Of a stretch of 56,431 bases of DNA, positions 8,443 to 33,139 are shown piece by piece. The stretch spans positions 1 to 56,431 of the forward strand of contig CAYUYO010000004.1 in the NCBI GenBank assembly GCA_964449385.1, in the 5' to 3' direction. The first letter of the stretch is position 1, and each line of letters opens with the position of its first letter. Under the pieces are notes generated by a model. It saw only the letters and a program-made list of their open reading frames with translations, made no database searches and was not told where the DNA came from. The stretch comes from an uncultured Candidatus Saccharibacteria bacterium (lineage in GTDB: Bacteria; Patescibacteriota; Minisyncoccia; Minisyncoccales; CAYUYO01). Made by a program: the position numbers and the translations under genes.

Positions 8443-9675
8443 TTATCCTCCAGATGCTTGATTAACTAAGGTTAGATTTCCGTCATCATTTCGTATGTAT
8501 TGTTTCGTTTCTAAAAATTCCATTTTATCTTTATCGCCTTCCTCATAATATCCTATAACCTCTTCTTTGCCATCTTCTTCAACTAATTTAATCAATAAAT
8601 CCCCTTTATTATAAACTTCCCAGTTCTTATCTATTCTTCCAAAAATAAGGGCATCGCGTTTTTCGGCCTTTGGCATCGTGTAGATTAAATTATCATCTTT
8701 ATCATAAATTTTTATTTCATCTCGTGCTTGGATGGTATAAATAGTCCAAATCCAAGTTTCGGTAAAATTGAGGCTTCTCCTTTGATTTTTGATTATAACA
8801 TCAACGAGAAAATCATAACAAAAAAGTGCGTTTTCTTTTGTCCAATTCGGCGGGCCCCAATTATGACCATGATTTAATATATATTTCCATTCTTTATTAT
8901 TATTTACACCAACTTTTGCGGTTAAATCCTCGAACTTTCGCATTAAATCTCTATCAATCCCTTTTTCAAGAAAATCAGCTCTATCATACAAATCTGAAAA
9001 CCAACCTCTACCTTGTCCAGGAAAAATATTGCTTGATTCTCTTAATTTTTTATCCTCCTCTGACGGAGGGCTCAAATCGTATCGTGGATTAAGCCTTATT
9101 CGTAATAGTGATTCCTCAAAAACTTTAAATTTAATTATTGCCATTTCGTTTAATGCTTCTTTGTATTTACCTTGCTCAATAAAGTCTTCAACCGTCTTAA
9201 TCTGCGTCTTTATAGAATCATCTTTAATTAAATCGGCAAGACTTATTATCTCCCATTCTAAACCGAAGTAGTGACGAGAGTATTCTTGAAAGAAAGAAAC
9301 AATAGGAGCAATCAATCCCTTTGCATGATTGGTGTTTGGCACGATGCCCTGATGTTTTATATTATTACGAATGGTATTAAGTTGGGCGATCTCGTTTTTG
9401 CTTATTAAAGAAAAACTGGTGTCAGTTTTTCTTTCGTATCCCTCAATTGCATTCAGGGTATCCAACAAATAACTCTTTTGCGTTAAGGAAATGTTCAGTT
9501 GACTTGCTATTGCACCAGTAAAATTATCTAAGGCGTCGTGTAAGGCAATTAAACCCTGCGAGAAATTAAAAGTATCATTTGGCGTATCGCAAAACTGAAT
9601 TGCTTTCTTAAATATAGTTTTCGCCAACACCAATCTATAGACAATATGCGGTTTTAATTGTTGCAAAGTGGACAT
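8443..9675 (-). CDS. hypothetical protein with an N-terminal HEPN-like Rx4H motif
   Basis: 410-aa ORF. A helical N-terminal region of about 140 aa ends in LNTIRNNIKHQG (R-N-x-x-x-H). The rest is unrecognised. Confidence 0.4.
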   Translation of the reverse strand: MSTLQQLKPHIVYRLVLAKTIFKKAIQFCDTPNDTFNFSQGLIALHDALDNFTGAIASQLNISLTQKSYLLDTLNAIEGYERKTDTSFSLISKNEIAQLNTIRNNIKHQGIVPNTNHAKGLIAPIVSFFQEYSRHYFGLEWEIISLADLIKDDSIKTQIKTVEDFIEQGKYKEALNEMAIIKFKVFEESLLRIRLNPRYDLSPPSEEDKKLRESSNIFPGQGRGWFSDLYDRADFLEKGIDRDLMRKFEDLTAKVGVNNNKEWKYILNHGHNWGPPNWTKENALFCYDFLVDVIIKNQRRSLNFTETWIWTIYTIQARDEIKIYDKDDNLIYTMPKAEKRDALIFGRIDKNWEVYNKGDLLIKLVEEDGKEEVIGYYEEGDKDKMEFLETKQYIRNDDGNLTLVNQASGG

Positions 9676-15549: not shown

Positions 15550-15719
15550 TCTCAATAAGTCTATTTCTGGACTATTTCTTGGTCGCCTTATCATAAGGTG
15601 GCTTTTTTATTTACGCATATTTTCAAGTCCCAATTGGTCATATGCTCCAAAATGACCAAATTTAGCTAGTGATTCGGCTGTTAAAATTAAATAAAAAGTA
15701 AATAAAATCATCAATTATT

Positions 15720-17318: not shown

Positions 17319-18956
17319 ATGAGCATGAACCAACAAGAAAAAATTAAATACTTGGTCTACTGCCGAAAATCTTCGGAACAAGAAGATAGGCAGGTACTAT
17401 CTATTGAATCTCAAAGAAACGAACTGGAAAGAATCATTGAAAACGAAGGATTAAAAGTTGTTGAGACATTGGAAGAATCTCATTCGGCAAAAAAGCCAGG
17501 CCGCCCTATCTTTGATAATCTTCTTGAAAAAATTGAAAAAGGAATCGCTAACGGACTCTTAGTTTGGAACGCAAATAGAATATCAAGAAATCCAATAGAT
17601 ACTGGCAGGATTGTTTATTTAATGGATGAAGGAAAACTGCTGGAAGTGAAGACGCCGGGCCAAGCATTTCGTAATACGCCCAACGATAAATTCTTACTCA
17701 ATCTCTTTTGTAGCCAGGCAAAATTGGAAAACGATAATAAAGGCGAAGATGTAAAACGTGGGCTGAAAACAAAAGCGGAAAAAGGAATGTATCCGGCGCC
17801 AGCTCCAACAGGATATATAAACGAAAAATATGCAGACAGGGGCAGCAAAAGAATACTGCCCGATCCTGAAAGGTTTGATCTGGTCAGAAAAATGTTTGAT
17901 ATGATGCTTAAAGGAATTCACTCGCCACTTCAAATTCTCAGAGCGGCTAATGACGAATGGGGTTTAAAAATGCCCAATGGTAAGAAAATGGGCAGAAGCA
18001 CTATCTATAACCTTTTTACCAATCCCGTTTATTACGGGATGTTTGAATATCCAAAACATAGTGGACTCTGGTATAAAGGCACTCACAAGCCAATGATAAC
18101 AGCTGAAGAATACGACCGAATTCAGTTCTTGCTCGGTAGAAAAGGGCGCCAGCGTCCTAAAACGCACGTCTTCGCCTTTACAGGACTTATACGATGCGCT
18201 GAGTGTGGTTGCATGGTTACGGCTGAAGAAAAGATAAAGAAACAGAAAAACGGCAACGTTCACCGATATATCTATTACCATTGCACCAAAAGGAAAAACC
18301 CGAACTGCACTCAAAAATGCATAGAGCAAAATGAATTGGAAAAACAAATCAAAGCCGCAATTGAAACAATCAGCATTCCGCCAGTGCTTCACGACTTTGC
18401 TCTGGAGTGGCTCAAAAAAGAAAACCAAAAAGAGTCGCATACCACAAACGTCGTGCTTGATACACAAGAAAAGAAATATAAAGACTGCCTGAAGAAATTA
18501 GCAGGTTTGATTGATATGAGGGCAGCTGGCGAAATAGATGAGGAAGAATTCAAATCAAGAAAACTTCCGCTAACTGCCGAGAAAAAGCGCTGGGAGCAGG
18601 TATTTACCAAAACCAGCCAGAGAGTGGATCAATGGCTAGATAAAGCTGACGAGATATTAGATTTCGCCCGAGATGCCAAAATAAGCTTCGAAAATGGCGA
18701 ACCCGACAATAAAAAAGAGATACTCTCCCGTTTAGGTTCGAACCTCCTGTTAAAAGACAAAATAATCGTAATTAACACCCAAAACACGCTGATTCCCATT
18801 CAGGCGCTTTCAACCGAAGATAAGCGGTTAGAACCTCTCAAAATAGGCAAAAATACGAAGGAGATAATGGAACTTTACTCAAAAAGTCCACGAATGCTGC
18901 GGGGCAAGGATTCGAACCTCGATCGATTGGACCAAAACCAACTGTCCTACCATTAG
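17319..18956 (+). CDS. large serine recombinase
   Basis: Resolvase-type N-domain (YCRKSSEQEDRQVLSIESQ, WNANRISRN), a recombinase domain, a zinc ribbon (CAECGCMV...YYHCTKRKNPNC) and a coiled-coil tail. The last 19 codons plus the stop lie antisense inside tRNA-Gln. Confidence 0.85.
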   Translation: MSMNQQEKIKYLVYCRKSSEQEDRQVLSIESQRNELERIIENEGLKVVETLEESHSAKKPGRPIFDNLLEKIEKGIANGLLVWNANRISRNPIDTGRIVYLMDEGKLLEVKTPGQAFRNTPNDKFLLNLFCSQAKLENDNKGEDVKRGLKTKAEKGMYPAPAPTGYINEKYADRGSKRILPDPERFDLVRKMFDMMLKGIHSPLQILRAANDEWGLKMPNGKKMGRSTIYNLFTNPVYYGMFEYPKHSGLWYKGTHKPMITAEEYDRIQFLLGRKGRQRPKTHVFAFTGLIRCAECGCMVTAEEKIKKQKNGNVHRYIYYHCTKRKNPNCTQKCIEQNELEKQIKAAIETISIPPVLHDFALEWLKKENQKESHTTNVVLDTQEKKYKDCLKKLAGLIDMRAAGEIDEEEFKSRKLPLTAEKKRWEQVFTKTSQRVDQWLDKADEILDFARDAKISFENGEPDNKKEILSRLGSNLLLKDKIIVINTQNTLIPIQALSTEDKRLEPLKIGKNTKEIMELYSKSPRMLRGKDSNLDRLDQNQLSYH

Positions 18957-18967
18957 ACGACCCCGCA
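18897..18967 (-). tRNA. tRNA-Gln (anticodon UUG)
   Basis: Manual cloverleaf: acceptor TGCGGGG/CCCCGCA, D stem GTCT/GGAC, anticodon stem GTTGG/CCAAT with loop TTTTGGT, T arm CGAGG-TTCGAAT-CCTTG. No CCA is encoded. Confidence 0.9.
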
Positions 18968-18970
18968 ATA

Positions 18971-20080
18971 TTAAGTTATTTGACAAGATTCGATGATGGC
19001 TAATTCCAAGGGTAACTGGGGTATAGGAGAATATTTTATTTTATTCTCGGCTTCCAGAAAAAGATTTAAAATATTTTGCAACTCAGTTTCTTTGAAAACT
19101 TCCGATTGTTTTTTTAATTTTTCTAATTCTTCTTTGGTCAATCCGGTAATAATAGGATTGGCTGAATCTGTTCCGACAATTTTTAAAATCAATGCCTGCC
19201 TTAAATAATTAATCAAAACCTTTGCAAATTCTTGAAGATCGGAACCTTTGTCGGTTATCTCGCGCAGAAAATCAATAGCCTTGAATGCTTTTTTTCCAGC
19301 AATAAAATCGCAGAATTTAGCTATTGATTCTATTTCTACCAATCCTAATAAATCTTTAATATTTTCAGCTTTAATTTCCTTGTTTTCTCCGGAAAAGGTT
19401 AATGTCTGATCCAATAATCCTTCAGCATCTCTTATTGATCCTCCGGCATTTAAAGCAATTAGTTCTAAAGCAGATTTTTCAATTTTAACTTTTTCTTTTT
19501 TAGAAATTATTTCCAGTCTTTTTATTATTTCCGGAACAGTTAGTTTTCTTAAATCAAACCGCTGGCACCTGGAAACAATAGTCGGAATCATTTTGTAGAT
19601 TTCAGTAGTTGCTAAGATAAAAATAGCGTAAGCAGGCGGTTCTTCTAAAGTTTTCAAAAGAGCGTTTGCCGCATCTTTTGTAAGCTGATGGCATTCGTCA
19701 ATAATAAATACTTTGTATTTTAATTTAGTAGGAGTGAATTTTATCCCATCTCTTAATTCTCTTACTCCGTCAATTCCTCCCTGGGAAGCAGCATCAATTT
19801 CAACTAAATCCAGAGTTCTTCCTTGATTAATATTCAAACAAGATGAACATTGATTGCAAGGTTCGGCTGTCCCCTCTTTCCGATTTTCACAATTAATAGC
19901 TTTGGCTAAAAGCCGGGCAATAGTAGTTTTCCCGCATCCTCTAGGTCCGCCAAATAAATAAGCATGGGAAATCATTCCTGAAGAAATAGCATTAGTTAAA
20001 GTCTGAACAACATGTTCTTGTCCGATAATTTCAGAAAAGGTTTTTGGCCTGTATTTACGATATAAAACCAAATTAGTCAT
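18971..20080 (-). CDS. dnaX: DNA polymerase III subunit gamma/tau (short form)
   Basis: Walker A GPRGCGKTT, zinc module CNQCSSC, DECHQL and SRCQRF. Confidence 0.9.
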   Translation of the reverse strand: MTNLVLYRKYRPKTFSEIIGQEHVVQTLTNAISSGMISHAYLFGGPRGCGKTTIARLLAKAINCENRKEGTAEPCNQCSSCLNINQGRTLDLVEIDAASQGGIDGVRELRDGIKFTPTKLKYKVFIIDECHQLTKDAANALLKTLEEPPAYAIFILATTEIYKMIPTIVSRCQRFDLRKLTVPEIIKRLEIISKKEKVKIEKSALELIALNAGGSIRDAEGLLDQTLTFSGENKEIKAENIKDLLGLVEIESIAKFCDFIAGKKAFKAIDFLREITDKGSDLQEFAKVLINYLRQALILKIVGTDSANPIITGLTKEELEKLKKQSEVFKETELQNILNLFLEAENKIKYSPIPQLPLELAIIESCQIT

Positions 20081-20131
20081 TTTTTATTGTTTTACTTTAG
20101 CATGAATTTCTTAAAAAGAGAAGTTTAGCGC

Positions 20132-20160
20132 TTGACAGGCAAATTTGCTGTTGTTAATCT
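20132..20160 (+). promoter_or_regulatory. sigma70-type promoter of the Cys leader / cysK-cysS operon
   Basis: TTGACA (20132-20137), a 17-nt spacer containing the palindrome GCAAATTTGC, then TAATCT (20155-20160). The ATG follows 12 nt later. Confidence 0.5.
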
Positions 20161-20172
20161 AAAAATAGAATA

Positions 20173-20262
20173 ATGAAAAAGAAAACTAACCTTATTATTT
20201 GTTGCAATTGTTGCAATTGTTGTACTTCTTTAAAAGAAGTGGTTAGTTTTATTAATTCTTAA
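20173..20262 (+). CDS. Cys-rich leader peptide MKKKTNLIICCNCCNCCTSLKEVVSFINS
   Basis: 29-codon ORF, below the ORF-track cutoff. Six Cys codons fall within 20200-20223. It lies upstream of cysteine synthase and Cys-tRNA ligase and is followed by alternative hairpins and a terminator. Confidence 0.6.
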   Translation: MKKKTNLIICCNCCNCCTSLKEVVSFINS

Positions 20263-20289
20263 TTCTTAATTTCTAATTTTTAAAACTAT

Positions 20290-20313
20290 CCTCTTCTTAA
20301 AAAGAGGTTTTTT
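20290..20313 (+). terminator. attenuator terminator upstream of cysK
   Basis: CCTCTT (20290-20295), a 6-nt loop, AAGAGG (20302-20307), then TTTTTT. It ends 18 nt before the cysK ATG. Confidence 0.5.
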
Positions 20314-20330
20314 ATTAAATAAAATTTAAT

Positions 20331-21173
20331 ATGAAAACAGAAAATATTTTAGATACAATCGGCAATACTCCTTTAATCAAAATTGATAATGTTTTTGCCA
20401 AATTAGAAACAATAAATCCTTCGGGTTCAATTAAAGACAGAATGGCAAAATACTTAATAGAAAAAGCAGAAGAAAGAGGAGAATTAAAACCAGGTTTTCA
20501 AATAATTGAGGCTACCTCAGGCAACACCGGAGTGAGTTTTGCTATGATTTCAGCCGTAAAAGGATATAAATTTATTGCTGTAATGCCGGAGAATACAAGT
20601 AAAGTAAAAAGGAAATTGATGAGAAACTTCGGAGCAGAGTTTGTTTTAACGCCGCAAACAGAACATTTAACAGGTGCTATTAAAAAAACTGAGGAACTGG
20701 CAAAAAAATATAAAAATGTTTGGCTGCCAAAACAATTTGAAAACTATGATAATGTTGAAGCTGTTAGAAAAAGCTTAGGCAAAGAAATTTTAGAGCAAAT
20801 GGACGAAGTTGATGCTTTTGTAGCCGGAATTGGCACCGGCGGAACGCTTATGGGAACAGCAAAAGCGTTAAAAATTAAGTTTCCCGAAGTAAAGATATTT
20901 GGAGTGGAAGCAGCCGAACTTCCCCATCAAATAGAAGGAATTTCAGACGGAATTGTGCCCAAAATTGTGGATTTTAATTTAATCGATGAAATGATTAAAA
21001 TTAAAAGCAAAGATGCGATTTTAATGGCGAAGCAGTTAGCTAAAAATAAAGGTTTATTGGTTGGAATTTCTTCGGGAGCTAATGTTTTAGCGGCTCTGAA
21101 ACTGAGCGAGAAATATAAGAATGTGATTACAGTGTTGCCTGACCGGGCTGAAAGATATGCTGAATTATGTTAA
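20331..21173 (+). CDS. cysK: cysteine synthase / O-acetylserine sulfhydrylase family (short form)
   Basis: PLP-Lys motif SGSIKDRMA, plus SGNTGVS and GTGGT. Confidence 0.8.
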   Translation: MKTENILDTIGNTPLIKIDNVFAKLETINPSGSIKDRMAKYLIEKAEERGELKPGFQIIEATSGNTGVSFAMISAVKGYKFIAVMPENTSKVKRKLMRNFGAEFVLTPQTEHLTGAIKKTEELAKKYKNVWLPKQFENYDNVEAVRKSLGKEILEQMDEVDAFVAGIGTGGTLMGTAKALKIKFPEVKIFGVEAAELPHQIEGISDGIVPKIVDFNLIDEMIKIKSKDAILMAKQLAKNKGLLVGISSGANVLAALKLSEKYKNVITVLPDRAERYAELC

Positions 21174-21184
21174 AATAAATTAAC

Positions 21185-22579
21185 ATGCTAAGAGTTTATA
21201 ATACGCTTTCCAAGAAAAAGGAGAATTTTAAACCCTTTAAAGATAAAAAAGTTGGTTTTTATACTTGTGGACCAACTGTTTACTGGTTTGCCCATATTGG
21301 TAATTTAAGAAGTTATCTTTTTTCCGATATTTTGAAGAAGGTTTTAGATTACAATCATTACCGTGTTAAATATGTGATGAATTTCACTGATATTGATGAT
21401 AAAACTATTAAAGGAACAATAGAAAAATACGGGAAAAATGTAAATAAAAGTGATCTAAAAAATTATACTGAAAAATATATTAAAATATTTAAAAACGACA
21501 TCAAAAAATTAAATATTGAACAGCCTTATTTTGTAAGGGCTACAGATACTATTGAAGATATAAAAAAAGTAATTAAGATTTTAATTAAAAAAGGATTTGC
21601 TTATATTAAGGAAGGTTCTACTTATTTTAATATTCAGAAATATAATCAAAAATATAAAGATTACGGAAATTTAGCAGGAAAGAATTTTTTAAAGGGCTTG
21701 AAATTAGGAGAAATAATTAGTGTTGATGAATATCAGAAAGAAAACATTGGAGATTTTGTTCTTTGGAAAAAGTGGGATAAAGAAAGAGATAAGAATATTT
21801 TTTGGACAGATCCTGTTTTAGGAAAGGGACGGCCAGGCTGGCATATTGAATGTTCGGTAATATCAATGAAATATTTAGGAAAACAATTTGATATTCATTC
21901 GGGCGGAGTGGATTTAATTTTTCCTCATCATTCTAACGAAATAGCTCAATCCCAAGCCTTTAGCGATAAAGTTCCTTTTGTGAAATATTGGATACATCCG
22001 GAACACTTAATGGTTGAAGAAGAAAAAATGGCAAAGTCAAAAGGAAATTTTTATACCTTAAAAGACATTGAGAAAAAATTTAATCCCATAGCCCTTCGTT
22101 ATCTATTTTTATCTTCTCATTATCGTTCTAAGTTAAATTTTACTTGGAAAAGCATAGAATCAAGCCAAAATGCCTTAAACAGGCTTTACGAAAAAATAAA
22201 AGAGCTTAAAAAAGAAGGAACAGTTAAGAAATTGGGATTAAAAGCAAAAGTATATCAGAGTAAATTTTTAGAATATATTAATAACGACTTGGATACCGTA
22301 AGAGCTTTGGCTTTAACTTGGAAAATAATTGAAGCTAAAGATATTTCTAAACAAGAAAAATATAATTTATTATTAGACTTTGATAAGATTTTTGGCTTGG
22401 GCTTAGCTGAAATCAAGAAAGAAAAAATTCCAGAAAATGTTTTAACATTAACCAAAGAAAGAGAAAAATATCGCCTAAAAAGCCAATGGAAGAAAGCCGA
22501 TGAAATTAGAAATAAAATTAAAAAAATGGGTTATTGGGTGGAGGACACTAAGAAAGGGTCAAAATTGAAACGGATATAA
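21185..22579 (+). CDS. cysS: cysteine--tRNA ligase
   Basis: HIGH motif HIGNLRSY, KMSKS motif KMAKSKGN, and GRPGWHIEC. Confidence 0.9.
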   Translation: MLRVYNTLSKKKENFKPFKDKKVGFYTCGPTVYWFAHIGNLRSYLFSDILKKVLDYNHYRVKYVMNFTDIDDKTIKGTIEKYGKNVNKSDLKNYTEKYIKIFKNDIKKLNIEQPYFVRATDTIEDIKKVIKILIKKGFAYIKEGSTYFNIQKYNQKYKDYGNLAGKNFLKGLKLGEIISVDEYQKENIGDFVLWKKWDKERDKNIFWTDPVLGKGRPGWHIECSVISMKYLGKQFDIHSGGVDLIFPHHSNEIAQSQAFSDKVPFVKYWIHPEHLMVEEEKMAKSKGNFYTLKDIEKKFNPIALRYLFLSSHYRSKLNFTWKSIESSQNALNRLYEKIKELKKEGTVKKLGLKAKVYQSKFLEYINNDLDTVRALALTWKIIEAKDISKQEKYNLLLDFDKIFGLGLAEIKKEKIPENVLTLTKEREKYRLKSQWKKADEIRNKIKKMGYWVEDTKKGSKLKRI

Positions 22580-22603
22580 GATAAATATAAGATATAAAAT
22601 AGT

Positions 22604-22634
22604 GGAGGCGTCTCTTTTTTAGGGAAACGCCTCC
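22604..22634. terminator. hairpin between the convergent cysS and small-ORF transcripts
   Basis: GGAGGCGT (22604-22611) pairs with ACGCCTCC (22627-22634). No clean U-tract on either side. Confidence 0.45.
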
Positions 22635-22643
22635 TGGAATGAA

Positions 22644-22859
22644 TCAACAAGGAATCACTAACAAATTACAGGGGAATTCTGCAACCCCTCCTGTACGAGT
22701 GTTCCTCGCCGAAACTCCCCTCTCTGTGGAGTAGAAGTTAAGGATGAGATAGACATCCCCATCAGGGGATATCCTGAATCGCTCATTTCCTTTCTTCTCT
22801 CCATTCTTCCGCCGGTCCTGGCGGCGCTGGTACAATCCTACCAAACTTACTCTTTCCAA
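22644..22859 (-). CDS. small GC-rich hypothetical protein, TTG start with a strong SD
   Basis: AAGGAGG lies 5 nt upstream of the TTG. The region is visibly GC-richer than its flanks. It sits 30 nt downstream of the GT4 gene. Confidence 0.5.
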   Translation of the reverse strand: MERVSLVGLYQRRQDRRKNGEKKGNERFRISPDGDVYLILNFYSTERGVSARNTRTGGVAEFPCNLLVIPC

Positions 22860-22889
22860 TTGTTCCTCCTTCTGCCAACTGCGAAATTA

Positions 22890-24077
22890 CTACATTTTAT
22901 TATAAATTTTATTAATGATCTTGTCAAGAGAAAAAATCTTTACTTTTTTCTTTTTCTTTTTTTGACATAATTTATAAAAATCTAAAACTTGATCAGCAAC
23001 TTTAGACCAGGAATAATTTTGAGCTTCTTTCCATCCCCTTCCCCCTACTTCTTTCCTTAGTTTTTTGTTTTTAATTAAAACTTCTATTTTTTTAGCTAAA
23101 GCTTGATAATCTTTGGGTTTAACTAAAAATTTCTCCCCCTTTTTTCCTTTAAGAAATTGTTTATAACCTAAATTGGCGAAAGCTACTACCGGCTTTCCGC
23201 AAGCCATTGCTTCTAAAAGCACCAAGCCGAAACTCTCGCCAAAAATAGCCGGACTTACAAAAATATCGCAAGTTCGGTAATAAGGAGGAAGTTTTTTACC
23301 TATAACTTCTCCTTCAAAAACAACATTTTTTAATTTATTTTCCTTAACGTATTCTTGGCAGTTTTCTTTTAATTCTCCTTCACCAACTATAATTAAACGA
23401 AGATTGGAGAATTTTTTAGTTAAAATCTTATAAGCTTTTAAGAGATAAATTAAACCTTTTCTTTCTTCAATCCTACCAACAAATAAAATATTAATTTTAT
23501 CATCAAGAAATTTTTTAATCTTTGGAACCTTTAAGTTAAACTCGTCTAAATCTATTCCGTTTGGAATAACTATTTTCGGTCCCTTAAAATCTTTGGCAAT
23601 TTTAAGATTCAGAGGAGCTACGCCGATTGCACCGTCAATTTTCCATTGGGCAATTTTTTTACAAAGATAAAAAAAACCTGACATTTTTAAAAATTTACTT
23701 TTTTCAGTATTAGCGTGAATGGTTAAGATATTTAAAGCTTTAGACCTTTCTAAAATCTGCCATCCTGACGGAAAGATAAAATTATGAAAATGTAAAACAT
23801 CAAACTTCTCTTTTTTAAGAAGTTTTTCTATAGCTAATGGATTAAAATTAATATCAATATCTCCTTGGGTTCCAGCAATAGTAATAGGAAAAGAAGTTCC
23901 AGACAAAATAACGTTTTTACCGTAAAACTCTTTTCTTTTTCTTCTTTGGATAATAATTTTTGATTTAATCCCCTTTTTTTTAAATTCTTTATCCAAACTT
24001 AAAACATGTCTTTTAACTCCTCCTGGTTGAGAAAAGGAATGAAACGAAATTAAGCCAATCTTGAGTTTTTTCACCAT
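22890..24077 (-). CDS. family 4 glycosyltransferase
   Basis: ESFGLVLLEAMACGKPVV motif. The start is set at ATG 24077 (MVKKLKIGLISF) because the longer ORF runs into dnaB. Confidence 0.8.
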   Translation of the reverse strand: MVKKLKIGLISFHSFSQPGGVKRHVLSLDKEFKKKGIKSKIIIQRRKRKEFYGKNVILSGTSFPITIAGTQGDIDINFNPLAIEKLLKKEKFDVLHFHNFIFPSGWQILERSKALNILTIHANTEKSKFLKMSGFFYLCKKIAQWKIDGAIGVAPLNLKIAKDFKGPKIVIPNGIDLDEFNLKVPKIKKFLDDKINILFVGRIEERKGLIYLLKAYKILTKKFSNLRLIIVGEGELKENCQEYVKENKLKNVVFEGEVIGKKLPPYYRTCDIFVSPAIFGESFGLVLLEAMACGKPVVAFANLGYKQFLKGKKGEKFLVKPKDYQALAKKIEVLIKNKKLRKEVGGRGWKEAQNYSWSKVADQVLDFYKLCQKKKKKKVKIFSLDKIINKIYNKM

Positions 24078-26108: not shown

Positions 26109-26447
26109 CTAGGTGTTAGAAATCTTAAGTATTTCTACTTCGGTAAAGGGCTGACGATGGCCCTTTTTTACTTTGTAACGTTTTTTTGCTCTATATTTGA
26201 AAATAATTACTTTTTTAGCTTTTGCTTGACGAACAATTTTTGCAATAACTTTGGCTCCTTTAATAAAAGGAGTACCGATTTCTAATTTATTGCTTTTTTC
26301 CAAAAGCAAGACATTATCAAAGATAATTTCTTCTTTTTCTTTCTCTGCACTTTTTTTAAAGTGTTGGGGATCAATTTTTTCAATCTTAATTTTTTGACCT
26401 GGAGAAACAAGATATTGTTTCCCTCCGGTTTTAATTACTGCTAACAT
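26109..26447 (-). CDS. rplU: 50S ribosomal protein L21
   Basis: MLAVIKTGGKQYLVSPGQKIKIEK and FKYRAKKRYKVKKGHRQ. Confidence 0.9.
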   Translation of the reverse strand: MLAVIKTGGKQYLVSPGQKIKIEKIDPQHFKKSAEKEKEEIIFDNVLLLEKSNKLEIGTPFIKGAKVIAKIVRQAKAKKVIIFKYRAKKRYKVKKGHRQPFTEVEILKISNT

Positions 26448-31546: not shown

Positions 31547-33139
31547 CTACTCATAGTCATGAGGAATTTGATAATAATCAATAATATATTTTATTAAATC
31601 ATGAGCAACCAATGTGGTTGATGCACCGGCTGATTGAGCCATCGGATTATCAAGTTTTATTAAAACTAAGAACTTTGGCTCAAAAGCCGGAGCAAATCCA
31701 ACAAAGCTTTGCCAGGTTTTATCCGAATAACCGGATTTGTCAATTCCTAAAACAGAAAAAGGAATATTAGAAGTTCCGGTTTTTCCAGCAATATAATAAC
31801 CGGGAATTTTAGCTTTTTCAGCATAACCATTTTCTACCGAGCTAACTAACATTGCTGTTAATTGAGAAGCAGTTTTATAAGAAATTACTTGTCTTTCTTC
31901 TTCAGGATTAGAATAAGATGGATCGTTTATCAAATGTGGTGTGACTAATTTTCCATTATTAGCAATAGTACCTATAGCTTTTACTAATTGAATGGGAGTC
32001 ATTTCAATTCCTTGTCCAAAACTGGCTGTTGCAAAATTTATTTCATAACCTTGTTTAAATTCTTTATTTTCAGAATAAGTTTCCGGCAGATCAATTCCAG
32101 TTGGTTCAAAAATGCCGAATTTAGTTAAATAGTCTAAAAAAACTTTATGAGGAAGTTGTTTTTCAACAAAGACCGCTCCGGTATTAATTGAATTTTCTAG
32201 GACTTGGGTCATTGTTTGTTCTCCCCAAACATGAAAGTTATAATTAGTAATTGACCAACCTCCGATTTTCACTACTCCTTCATCAATATAAGTGGTTTGA
32301 GGAGTAATTTTTCCTTCTTCCAGTCCAATAGCCATAGTTATAGGCTTAAAAATTGAACCCGGTTCAAAGAGTTTTTGAGTTGCTCCATTCTGAAAGATTT
32401 CTAAATTGTCAGCTGTTGCATATTCGATATATTCATTGGGATTAAAGTTTGGAAAATTAGCCAAAGCGATTATTTCTCCAGAATGTGGCTCCATCACTAT
32501 AATTTGGCCTCCCTCAATAGCTAAATCTTCTTTAGCTTTTTGTAATAATTTTTCAGCTGTAAATTGAATATTATAATCTAATGTCAGAACAATATCAGAG
32601 TTGTTTGCAAGTTCTTCGTTATAATATTCTTCTAATCCATATTGCCCTTTTTTTTCAGCTCCTAAGAAACCAATTACTTGAGAAGCTAATGATTCTTGAG
32701 GATAATATCTGCCTTGTTCAGATTCAAGATAAATTCCTGCTAGGTTTATTTTTTTTAAATCTTCCACTTCTTGATTACTCAGTCTACTTTTAATTGGCGA
32801 ATATAATGTATCTTTCTGGAGTTTTTTTAAAACAAAAGCTTCGTCAAGCGAAAGCATTTCAGATAAAGTTTTGGCAGTTTCTTCTATTTTTGTAATTTTG
32901 GGAGGATAAGCAAAAACCAATGGCCATTTCTTATCAATTGCTAAATATTCTTTATCTTTTAAAAAAATCTTTCCTCGAGCTGTTATTTGACTTTCTTCGC
33001 CGTTGGCGGAAACACTTTGGCCTTGAGCCAGGGCTTTATAGAAATCAGCTCGAACAATTTGAATAAAAAAAAGCTTACTAAGAAGCACTACTAAAAGTAA
33101 AAATATTAATATAAAAATTAAATTGATTCTTGTTCTCAT
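31547..33139 (-). CDS. ftsI: penicillin-binding protein 2/3-type transpeptidase (FtsI-like)
   Basis: SxxK (GSIFKP), SxN (NSINTG) and KTG (GKTGTS) motifs, with dcw-cluster position after ftsL. Confidence 0.8.
   Translation of the reverse strand: MRTRINLIFILIFLLLVVLLSKLFFIQIVRADFYKALAQGQSVSANGEESQITARGKIFLKDKEYLAIDKKWPLVFAYPPKITKIEETAKTLSEMLSLDEAFVLKKLQKDTLYSPIKSRLSNQEVEDLKKINLAGIYLESEQGRYYPQESLASQVIGFLGAEKKGQYGLEEYYNEELANNSDIVLTLDYNIQFTAEKLLQKAKEDLAIEGGQIIVMEPHSGEIIALANFPNFNPNEYIEYATADNLEIFQNGATQKLFEPGSIFKPITMAIGLEEGKITPQTTYIDEGVVKIGGWSITNYNFHVWGEQTMTQVLENSINTGAVFVEKQLPHKVFLDYLTKFGIFEPTGIDLPETYSENKEFKQGYEINFATASFGQGIEMTPIQLVKAIGTIANNGKLVTPHLINDPSYSNPEEERQVISYKTASQLTAMLVSSVENGYAEKAKIPGYYIAGKTGTSNIPFSVLGIDKSGYSDKTWQSFVGFAPAFEPKFLVLIKLDNPMAQSAGASTTLVAHDLIKYIIDYYQIPHDYE

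Follow-up and report, generated by a model that had tools for sequence, protein, structure and literature searches.

Known attenuators and cysteine sensors

Leader-peptide attenuators of the classical kind, represented in Proteobacteria by trpL, hisL, leuL, thrL, pheL and ilvL, combine a short leader open reading frame (ORF) that carries a cluster of cognate codons, mutually exclusive 1:2, 2:3 and 3:4 hairpins, and an intrinsic terminator ahead of the first structural gene. Their stop codon is so located that segment 2 is covered when a ribosome terminates. Cys-specific T-boxes, which serve cysteine-related genes in Firmicutes, bind the tRNA directly and need no translation. Patescibacteria, also called the candidate phyla radiation (CPR), are uncultured and have reduced genomes, and to our knowledge almost nothing is known of their gene regulation. 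Here we describe an element predicted to have all of the classical parts, found upstream of cysK-cysS on contig CAYUYO010000004.1 from an uncultured Candidatus Saccharibacteria bacterium. The window is the whole 56,431-nt stretch analysed, and coordinates are positions in it. An earlier note on this DNA had pointed out the element as a possible cysteine attenuator. We think it likely that it is a ribosome-mediated (leader-peptide) transcription attenuator that senses charged tRNA-Cys and controls read-through into cysK-cysS.

The element departs from the classical attenuators in several respects. The amino acid sensed would be cysteine, and the operon joins a biosynthetic enzyme to the cognate tRNA ligase. 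The ATG of the upstream ORF (uORF) lies 5-13 nt after the -10 hexamer, which makes it near-leaderless, and no Shine-Dalgarno (SD) sequence precedes it. An extra segment, segment 0, binds to segment 2 in its 3' half and leaves the Cys codons in a bulge, segment 1 can pair with segment 4 as well as with segment 2, and the host belongs to Patescibacteria. With the T-box it shares the input, charged versus uncharged tRNA-Cys, and the output, terminator versus antiterminator, but the leader region (20050-20400) gives no T-box covariance match at E <= 10. The same Rfam search returned no leader family or riboswitch either, only meaningless sub-threshold hits, and the leader has no sequence similarity to the Rfam leader families.

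The uORFC-8-2 motif is a predicted attenuator upstream of cysS in Rhodobacterales (Alphaproteobacteria) (Brewer et al. 2021, PMC8632094). Like the present leader, it has stems, a U-run at its end and a uORF in which Cys codons stand in tandem, and it would control a Cys-tRNA ligase; both are computational predictions. Its two Cys codons lie inside the first stem, upstream of cysS alone, whereas here 3-6 Cys codons lie between segments 0 and 1, outside the stems, upstream of cysK; the segment sequences also differ, in a comparison made with its published description. In the mycobacterial "Cys ribulon", polycysteine leaderless small ORFs (sORFs) act translationally, by unmasking an SD sequence (Canestrari et al. 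2020, bioRxiv 10.1101/834739). Common to both systems are a leaderless or near-leaderless ORF, consecutive Cys codons, cysteine-metabolism genes downstream and, as a prediction here, the remodelling of a downstream RNA duplex by a ribosome that pauses on Cys codons. The duplex of the dissected mycobacterial case hides the SD of the next gene, and there is no intrinsic terminator; the present family has a conserved hairpin and T-run and no sequence relationship to the mycobacterial sORFs, the genome of the window makes essentially no use of SDs, and a test for an SD-sequestering duplex found no SD upstream of cysK in the window. Cys-rich candidate leader peptides were also proposed, by comparative genomics, for cys and cbs operons of Actinobacteria, which lack conserved terminator and antiterminator hairpins and for which a role of Rho was suggested (Seliverstov et al. 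2005, PMC1262725). Short upstream ORFs, runs of Cys codons and cysteine-biosynthesis genes are common to those candidates and to the present leaders, in which the full set of hairpins is conserved. Our literature search, of limited coverage, found no earlier Cys leader-peptide attenuator in CPR/Patescibacteria. This agrees with the novelty that the earlier note had claimed for such a lineage, although the kind of element is less new, given the Rhodobacterales cysS motif (PMC8632094). Judged from its sequence, the element is a different RNA family from a different phylum, predicted to work like the classical attenuators and uORFC-8-2.

The leader ORF and its promoter

All coordinates listed in the earlier note for the promoter, uORF, Cys run, paired segments, T6 tract and 10-bp stem match the sequence (Table 1), and matches to PF00291 and TIGR00435 confirm that the uORF precedes genes for a cysteine synthase family protein and a Cys-tRNA ligase. 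Cysteine accounts for 0.74% of the 16,105 residues encoded by the 52 long ORFs of the window, which contain a single CC dipeptide; from this usage, the probability of at least six Cys in eight codons, as seen in the uORF, is about 4.5e-12. The run is a 9-bp tandem repeat, TTGTTGCAA in 2.7 copies, which accounts for its origin but not for its retention. In the relatives described below (L-numbers denote their fetched contigs or loci), the clusters at the equivalent place read CCNCC, CCDCC, CECCC, CCC, CCCC or CCCCC. Cys clusters occur in 21 of 22 family members; L087 is degenerate, with two Cys. A strain 93-94% identical (L046, L119) has one 9-bp unit fewer, giving CCNCC (L046:1378-1392, likewise L119) against CCNCCNCC in the window (20200-20223), so that the number of sensor codons varies at strain level.

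Other features of the peptide are less constant. The uORF is 16-30 codons long in the relatives, and the residues conserved in its peptide (KTN, SLKEGVS) coincide with the paired RNA segments. The position of the stop also varies: at 20260 in the window it lies after segment 2, as it does in the other leaders except L040, L047 and L136, in which it precedes that segment. Since the stop falls just before or just after segment 2, a terminating ribosome would cover that segment either way. In every close relative an ATG stands in frame with the TGT/TGC run, with no intervening stop, at a distance of 24, 27, 33 or 36 nt.

The -10 hexamer matches TATAAT at three of six positions, and a consensus promoter scan did not list it. 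We retained the promoter because its position is conserved in the relatives: TTGACA is present in 20 of 21 of them (TTGACG in L138), 34-46 nt from the uORF ATG with the spacing kept, and a TAAnnT-type hexamer follows at equal spacing (about 17 nt after TTGACA) in most of them. From this we infer a transcription start near 20167-20168, about 5 nt before the leader ATG. The ATG at 20173 is 12 nt past the -10 hexamer. In L040 and L047 the distance is 5-6 nt. Together with that of the window, these distances would imply a 5' leader of 0-6 nt, and by the same measure the uORF starts of L040, L047 and L136 are effectively leaderless. Of the two traits that the earlier note had ascribed to the uORF start, the short leader appears to be a real, leaderless-like feature of this ORF. 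The lack of an SD is not specific to it, since an SD-like motif precedes just 3 of the 52 long ORFs in the window, whose start regions are A/T-rich; translation initiation in the source organism appears to be largely SD-independent.

Competing helices

Helices are named here by the segments that they join. Segment 2 has the choice of several partners. In the window, 15 of 17 positions pair between 20234-50 and 20282-98 in the 2:3 duplex (-18.4 kcal/mol). In each leader this duplex is the best one that the sequence 3' of the Cys cluster can form with the sequence preceding the terminator loop. Across 21 leaders the duplex energies span -16.7 to -26.7 kcal/mol, and the z-scores against shuffled sequences run from -2.3 to -7.4. 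The 3' part of segment 3 is also the 5' arm of the terminator, and the 2:3 duplex covers 100% of that arm in 21 of 21 leaders; antiterminator and terminator are thus mutually exclusive, as the earlier note had proposed. Segment 2 begins 10 nt past the last Cys codon, and about 10-11 nt past it in most relatives, which is about the reach of a ribosome beyond its A site.

The terminator suggested in the earlier note was also picked up by a terminator scan, which reports on the plus strand a hairpin at 20290-20307 with 6 pairs, a 6-nt loop and the tail TTTTTTATTA; the energy of the hairpin is -5.7 kcal/mol. A 600-nt region of the locus contains 2 terminator-like sites, compared with 0.3 +/- 0.5 in shuffles. 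All 21 analysed leaders have a hairpin followed by a T-run of at least four, with stems of 4-7 bp and energies of -2.1 to -9.0 kcal/mol; as computed, the antiterminator is far stronger than the terminator hairpin in these leaders. The start of the T-run is separated from the cysK ATG by 8-62 nt, in 13 of the 21 leaders by only 8-16 nt, which leaves no room for a separate cysK promoter, so that cysK would be transcribed through the terminator. The intergenic space between cysK and the divergent dnaX is 250 nt and is a divergent promoter region; a hairpin with T-run there serves no upstream gene that requires a terminator. Hairpins with T-runs also mark gene ends in the window, for example at 15581-15603 and 26145-26166, and 20 kb of the window contains 24 such sites, compared with 14.6 +/- 4.1 in shuffles.

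Folding of the leader, which the earlier note had suggested as a check, gives -32.7 kcal/mol for the whole leader (z = -3.7 versus shuffles). In the minimum-energy fold of the free RNA, 1:4 extends 2:3 into one long hairpin, which still abuts the T-run. RNAalifold, run on a MAFFT alignment, likewise predicts 1:4 and part of 2:3, with the terminator absent from the prediction. On the strength of these folds we treat 1:4 as a real alternative pairing and include it in the model below.

The spacer that forms the antiterminator loop has a further property. Its TAA triplets, 7 nt apart, close all three reading frames before segment 3. The three frames are closed in 20 of 21 leaders, compared with 11.2 expected from shuffles, and the equivalent spacer of L001 is TAATTCC repeated four times. 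Ribosomes that have slipped out of frame at hungry codons would be released by such stops as well.

Conservation and covariation among relatives

Relatives were collected as CysK loci from genome contigs, from metagenome contigs and from contigs encoding specific homologues. Counting the window, 21 distinct leaders upstream of CysK homologues (57-94% identity) have one architecture: TTGACA, TAAnnT, ATG, Cys cluster, a CCTCTT-like segment 1, a GGAAGGGGTTAGTTT-like segment 2, an AT-rich spacer, a AAACTAACCTCTTCC-like segment 3, an AAGAGG-like segment 4 and a T-run. The contigs with the conserved leader are mostly of Patescibacteria type. By their labels, the nearest genome contigs by CysK are Patescibacteria (L001, 79%), Parcubacteria GBS-2 (L040, 72%) and Peribacteria (L003, 60%). 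Across many samples, 24 contigs encode an identical CysK, and the leader is identical in 8 of 9 inspected, with a 1-nt difference in the ninth.

The earlier note had proposed a search of relatives for Cys-rich uORFs and for compensatory changes upstream of cysK, and both were found. With a Cys-rich uORF defined as a short ORF starting with ATG, having at least 3 Cys in 6 codons and lying within 260 nt upstream, 18 of 23 loci with CysK at least 55% identical have one on the sense strand, compared with 0 of 23 for the antisense control and 0 of 23 for the downstream control. Below 55% identity (Dehalococcoidales, Thermoplasmata, WOR-3 and others), a Cys uORF was found in 1 of 65 homologues, which is the control level. 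No Cys leader was seen at the Patescibacteria loci L002 and L005, where cysK lies behind another gene, nor at L140 and L141. A covariance model built from the leaders finds 22 sequences at E <= 1.3e-6, all 21 leaders plus the degenerate L087, and all 22 matches sit directly upstream of CysK homologues. Within the window the model also matches 32962-33139 and 8732-8835 at E 0.13-0.69; these were treated as noise, and the window has no credible second copy.

On the model-based alignment, 82.5% of 2:3 positions are paired and 14 of 17 pairs change on both sides. The two-sided changes fill 42 cells, compared with 16.1 +/- 3.5 in shuffles, and 0 of 500 shuffles reach the observed value; the covariation score is 0.38, compared with at most 0.19 when the partner columns are slid. 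The MAFFT alignment, which is not fitted to structure, gives the same picture (75.9% paired; 32 cells versus 17.2 +/- 3.3; 0 of 500 shuffles). The covariation of 2:3, the alternative pairing of segment 2 that the earlier note had described, is significant. The 10-bp stem that brackets the Cys codons, formed by segment 0 with the 3' half of segment 2 (20182-91 with 20241-50), also proves to be a family feature: 76-79% of 0:2 positions are paired, with two-sided changes at 5-6 pairs (5 of 7 at 76%). The terminator helix 3:4 is 86% paired across the family and mostly invariant.

The 1:2 helix required a change of register. The earlier note had paired ACTTCTT with AAGAAGT across a 3-nt loop, a pairing that is present in the window and in the near-identical strain. 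As a family helix this register was rejected, with 70.5% paired and two pairs failing in 15 and 19 of 22 sequences. In the family register, segment 1 pairs with a downstream AAGAGGT across a 6-nt loop, and the helix is 90.6% paired.

A more distant bacterial leader, L098:1363-1490, lies next to a RecR gene and has a CysK 45% identical. It encodes the peptide MKANNQTLTLCCCSPELLGEPLFG, ending at the stop codon, and its four segments are re-coded as CTCCCC/GGGGAG, followed by T5; the match to the covariance model is weak, at 26.6 bits. This leader suggests that the design persists or recurs beyond the core family.

Proposed mechanism and ribosome-footprint model

In the mechanism that we propose, the leader ORF would be translated from a near-leaderless start, on a transcript that begins about 5 nt upstream of the ATG. 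Segment 2 (20234-50) would either pair with segment 3 (20282-98) as the antiterminator or be held by segments 0 and 1. Segment 4 (20300-07), which abuts the T6 tract, would pair with segment 3 as the short terminator hairpin; once 2:3 has formed, segment 4 could take segment 1, extending the helix to the T-run. When cysteine is plentiful, the ribosome would reach the stop at 20260 and cover segment 2, 3:4 would form, and transcription would terminate at 20308-13. An RNA free of ribosomes would fold as 0/1:2 with 3:4, or as 2:3 with 1:4, and either fold would put a hairpin against the T-run and cause termination. When Cys-tRNA is scarce, the ribosome would stall with the last Cys codons in its A site and its footprint would hide segment 1, leaving segment 2 to segment 3 and segment 4 partnerless, with read-through into cysK and cysS. 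This is the logic of trp and his attenuation with two additions: in the absence of a ribosome, segment 2 would be clamped by segment 0, and segment 4 could take segment 1 in place of segment 3, so that segment 1 must be masked. Given that the optimum for the free RNA is 2:3 with 1:4, read-through would require that segment 1 be masked, not merely that segment 2 be free.

This scheme was modelled by treating the ribosome as 27 unpaired nt, from -12 to +14 relative to the first base of the P site, stepped codon by codon along the uORF, and computing, at equilibrium, how probably each base is paired in a transcript that extends to segment 4. For the window, the probability that segment 4 is paired is 0.96-0.98 without a ribosome and at nearly all ribosome positions. 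It drops to 0.16-0.21 only when the A site is on codons 16-17, the last two Cys codons, with values of 0.65 at codon 15 and 0.74 at codon 18. With the front edge of the footprint set at +12 to +18, the position that frees segment 4 coincides with the Cys codons in 13-17 of 21 leaders, and the minimum lies within or beside the Cys cluster in all leaders except L138 and L139. The model points to the distal Cys codons and is in line with the proposal of the earlier note, in which a stalled ribosome would mask segment 1 and free segment 2.

Weighing the alternatives

What the sequences show is the elements themselves, their conservation, covariation in the alternative helices and the way these are placed relative to the Cys codons, and several explanations other than transcription attenuation were considered for them. 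Translational attenuation of the mycobacterial type would have 3:4 hide the ribosome-binding site of cysK, the GAGG of segment 4, until a stalled ribosome frees it. This is the mode of the sole experimentally dissected Cys-codon leaderless sORF (bioRxiv 10.1101/834739), and AAGAGG in segment 4 is SD-like, its end being about 8-16 nt from the cysK ATG in 13 of 21 leaders. In the window, however, GAGG ends 23 nt before the ATG, and in seven other leaders 31-62 nt before it, too far for an SD. The presence of SD-like motifs at only 3 of 52 window ORFs points to an organism that does not rely on SD pairing, and the T-run retained after the hairpin in 21 of 21 leaders is something that an SD-sequestering hairpin does not need; we regard this alternative as improbable. 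A second possibility is a switch that does not depend on translation, such as a riboswitch or an element that binds tRNA or protein, with Cys codons incidental to a TTGTTG repeat. Conservation of the alternative helices in their own right would fit such a switch, as would the simple 9-bp repeat that makes up the Cys run of the window. It seems very improbable, given that no Rfam family, T-box included, matches at E <= 10; that every close relative keeps an in-frame ATG 5-13 nt after the -10 hexamer with no stop before the Cys run; that Cys identity is kept while the nucleotides and their arrangement vary; and that the footprint positions which abolish the terminator are the Cys codons. The helices, moreover, are linear competitors, without a conserved junction resembling a ligand pocket. 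The promoter, ORF and terminator could also be laid out as a small stand-alone gene for a Cys-rich peptide, metal-binding or a precursor, with its own terminator and with cysK expressed separately. To this we give the least credence of all, as the 8-16 nt between T-run and cysK ATG in most leaders leave no room for a promoter, neither the length nor the C-terminus of the peptide is conserved (short forms end in ...CCASF at the stop, before segment 2), and its conserved residues, KTN and SLKEGVS, are the ones encoded by paired segments. The element is always found beside cysK and never elsewhere, and the window has no credible second copy.

Several points weigh against transcription attenuation itself. 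The transcription start, the translation of the uORF, termination at the T-run and the response to cysteine are all inferred from sequence, and we know of nothing reported on intrinsic termination or transcription-translation coupling in Patescibacteria. The terminator stems are short (4-7 bp) and weak. The 1:2 and 3:4 helices are mostly conserved, so that their support comes from pairing frequency, with little compensatory change, and the leader sequences are related by descent, so that shuffle statistics overstate their independence. The equilibrium footprint model leaves segment 4 paired in 4-8 of 21 leaders (L043, L132, L135, L137, L138 and L139), and in the window just the last two of the six Cys codons score. 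At L138 and L139, where cysS is detached from cysK, a search upstream of cysS found a promoter of its own but no Cys leader.

Implications for gene regulation in Patescibacteria

If the conserved leader is an attenuator, CPR cells would couple translation closely to transcription, would initiate efficiently on near-leaderless mRNAs with no SD, and would use intrinsic terminators for regulation. They would also tune cysteine synthesis and the charging of tRNA-Cys actively, as opposed to relying passively on a host. The element is a compact module that could be tested in vitro, in heterologous or cell-free systems, for the behaviour of CPR RNA polymerase and ribosomes. The family further shows one sensor sequence, segment 2, co-evolving with alternative partners. 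The mechanism proposed is a textbook one, yet it offers a rare and well-supported view of gene regulation in CPR, and it leads to the archaeal-type poly-Cys uORFs described next.

Poly-Cys uORFs at archaeal-type cysK loci

Members of the same CysK clade (55-62% identity) occur on at least five further distinct contigs, each preceded by what looks like a leaderless uORF (Table 1). Archaeal markers are present on two: L010 has GatE, and L004, labelled Pacearchaeota, has ApgM. In these uORFs the poly-Cys stands directly before the stop codon, as ...SCCC, MKGKSLVGCCCC, ...VPCCC, ...LCCCCCCCC or ...ACC. A TATA-like box lies about 20-25 nt before each ATG, and an oligo-T tract follows the uORF in 4 of 5. 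In L006, cysS follows cysK. We know of no amino-acid-sensing attenuation by uORFs in Archaea. If functional, these uORFs would extend tRNA-Cys sensing to DPANN-type archaea, and it is possible, as a tentative reading of the sequences, that the Cys-codon uORF is not confined to these bacteria. In that case, the cysK(-cysS) module may have been exchanged between CPR bacteria and DPANN archaea, with one sensing principle taking a form suited to each domain.

At three of these loci (L004:2949-3010, L072:1445-1500 and L006:1985-2110) a strong SD and ATG begin another short ORF, and this ORF runs over the apparent GTG start of cysK. Each of these ORFs has one Cys codon, and cysK is in the +1 frame relative to it. 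They could represent translational coupling, a second uORF or a frameshift site. A programmed +1 frameshift at a Cys codon was considered for the archaeal-type loci and set aside, as a slippery CCC-T is found in L072 only.

The cysK-cysS locus and neighbouring features

The coordinates of the leader, the genes around it and the archaeal-type uORFs are collected in Table 1. The cysK-like product is a member of the cysteine synthase family; it scores 319.6 bits against TIGR01136 (cysKM), slightly under the cut-off of 344. The cysS gene starts 11 nt past the cysK stop and is presumably in one transcript with cysK. The adjacency of cysK and cysS is seen again in L132-L137. In L138 and L139, cysK and cysS are separated by a TFIIB-like gene (PF00382 2.2e-15, and a zinc ribbon, PF08271), at L138:2361-3299 and L139:2358-3281 (-), on contigs that are otherwise bacterial-looking (dnaX, GtrA).

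Table 1. Positions of the leader features, flanking genes and archaeal-type uORFs
Feature	Position	Strand	Basis or description
-35 hexamer TTGACA	20132..20137	+	sequence; kept in relatives
-10 hexamer TAATCT	20155..20160	+	sequence; 17-nt spacer after -35
Leader uORF, 29 codons, MKKKTNLIICCNCCNCCTSLKEVVSFINS	20173..20262	+	sequence; homologous short ORFs in relatives
Segment 0, AAAACTAACC	20182..20191	+	perfect 10-bp complement to GGTTAGTTTT at 20241-20250
Cys codon cluster TGT TGC AAT TGT TGC AAT TGT TGT	20200..20223	+	6 Cys in 8 codons
Segment 1, ACTTCTTT (ACTTCTT at 20224-30)	20224..20231	+	directly 3' of last Cys codon
Segment 2, AAGAAGTGGTTAGTTTT (AAGAAGT at 20234-40, AAGAAGTGG to 20242)	20234..20250	+	predicted antiterminator 5' strand
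Spacer / antiterminator loop, 7-nt repeat TTAATTC x4.6	20252..20283	+	repeat scan
Segment 3, AAAACTATCCTCTTCTT (CCTCTTCTT at 20290-98)	20282..20298	+	predicted antiterminator 3' strand
Segment 4, AAAAGAGG (AAGAGG at 20302-07)	20300..20307	+	predicted terminator 3' arm
T6 tract of predicted intrinsic terminator	20308..20313	+	ends 17 nt before cysK ATG
cysK-like cysteine synthase family gene, 280 aa, pyridoxal phosphate-dependent (PALP enzyme)	20331..21173	+	PF00291 1.4e-68
cysS, cysteine--tRNA ligase	21185..22579	+	TIGR00435 430.5 bits, above cut-off 340
dnaX	18971-20080	-	divergent from cysK
Archaeal-type poly-Cys uORF	L004:2795-2869		sequence
Archaeal-type poly-Cys uORF	L063:300-371		sequence
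Archaeal-type poly-Cys uORF	L006:1808-1846 (= L060)		sequence
Archaeal-type poly-Cys uORF	L072:1312-1386		sequence
Archaeal-type poly-Cys uORF	L104:1369-1446		sequence
Archaeal-type poly-Cys uORF	L010:2877-2945 (= L083)		sequence

The window has a G+C content of 33.5%, and three tRNAs are its sole Rfam matches at gathering thresholds. Beside dnaX, a large serine recombinase ORF at 17319-18956 (+), with Resolvase, Recombinase and Zn-ribbon domains, overlaps by its 3' end a tRNA-Gln at 18896-18967 (-), and this overlap may mark the edge of an integrated element. On the other side of the operon, at 22590-22927 (-), a perfect consensus promoter, TTGACA-17-TATAAT at 22927..22899, precedes an unusually GC-rich and strongly structured RNA of about 300 nt with a minimum free energy of -117.9 kcal/mol (z = -6.1). 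No Rfam family matches this RNA at E <= 1. It ends in a terminal hairpin, GGAGGCGT...ACGCCTCC, followed by a T-rich tail, and converges on the 3' end of cysS; its sequence makes it a candidate for an undescribed non-coding RNA.

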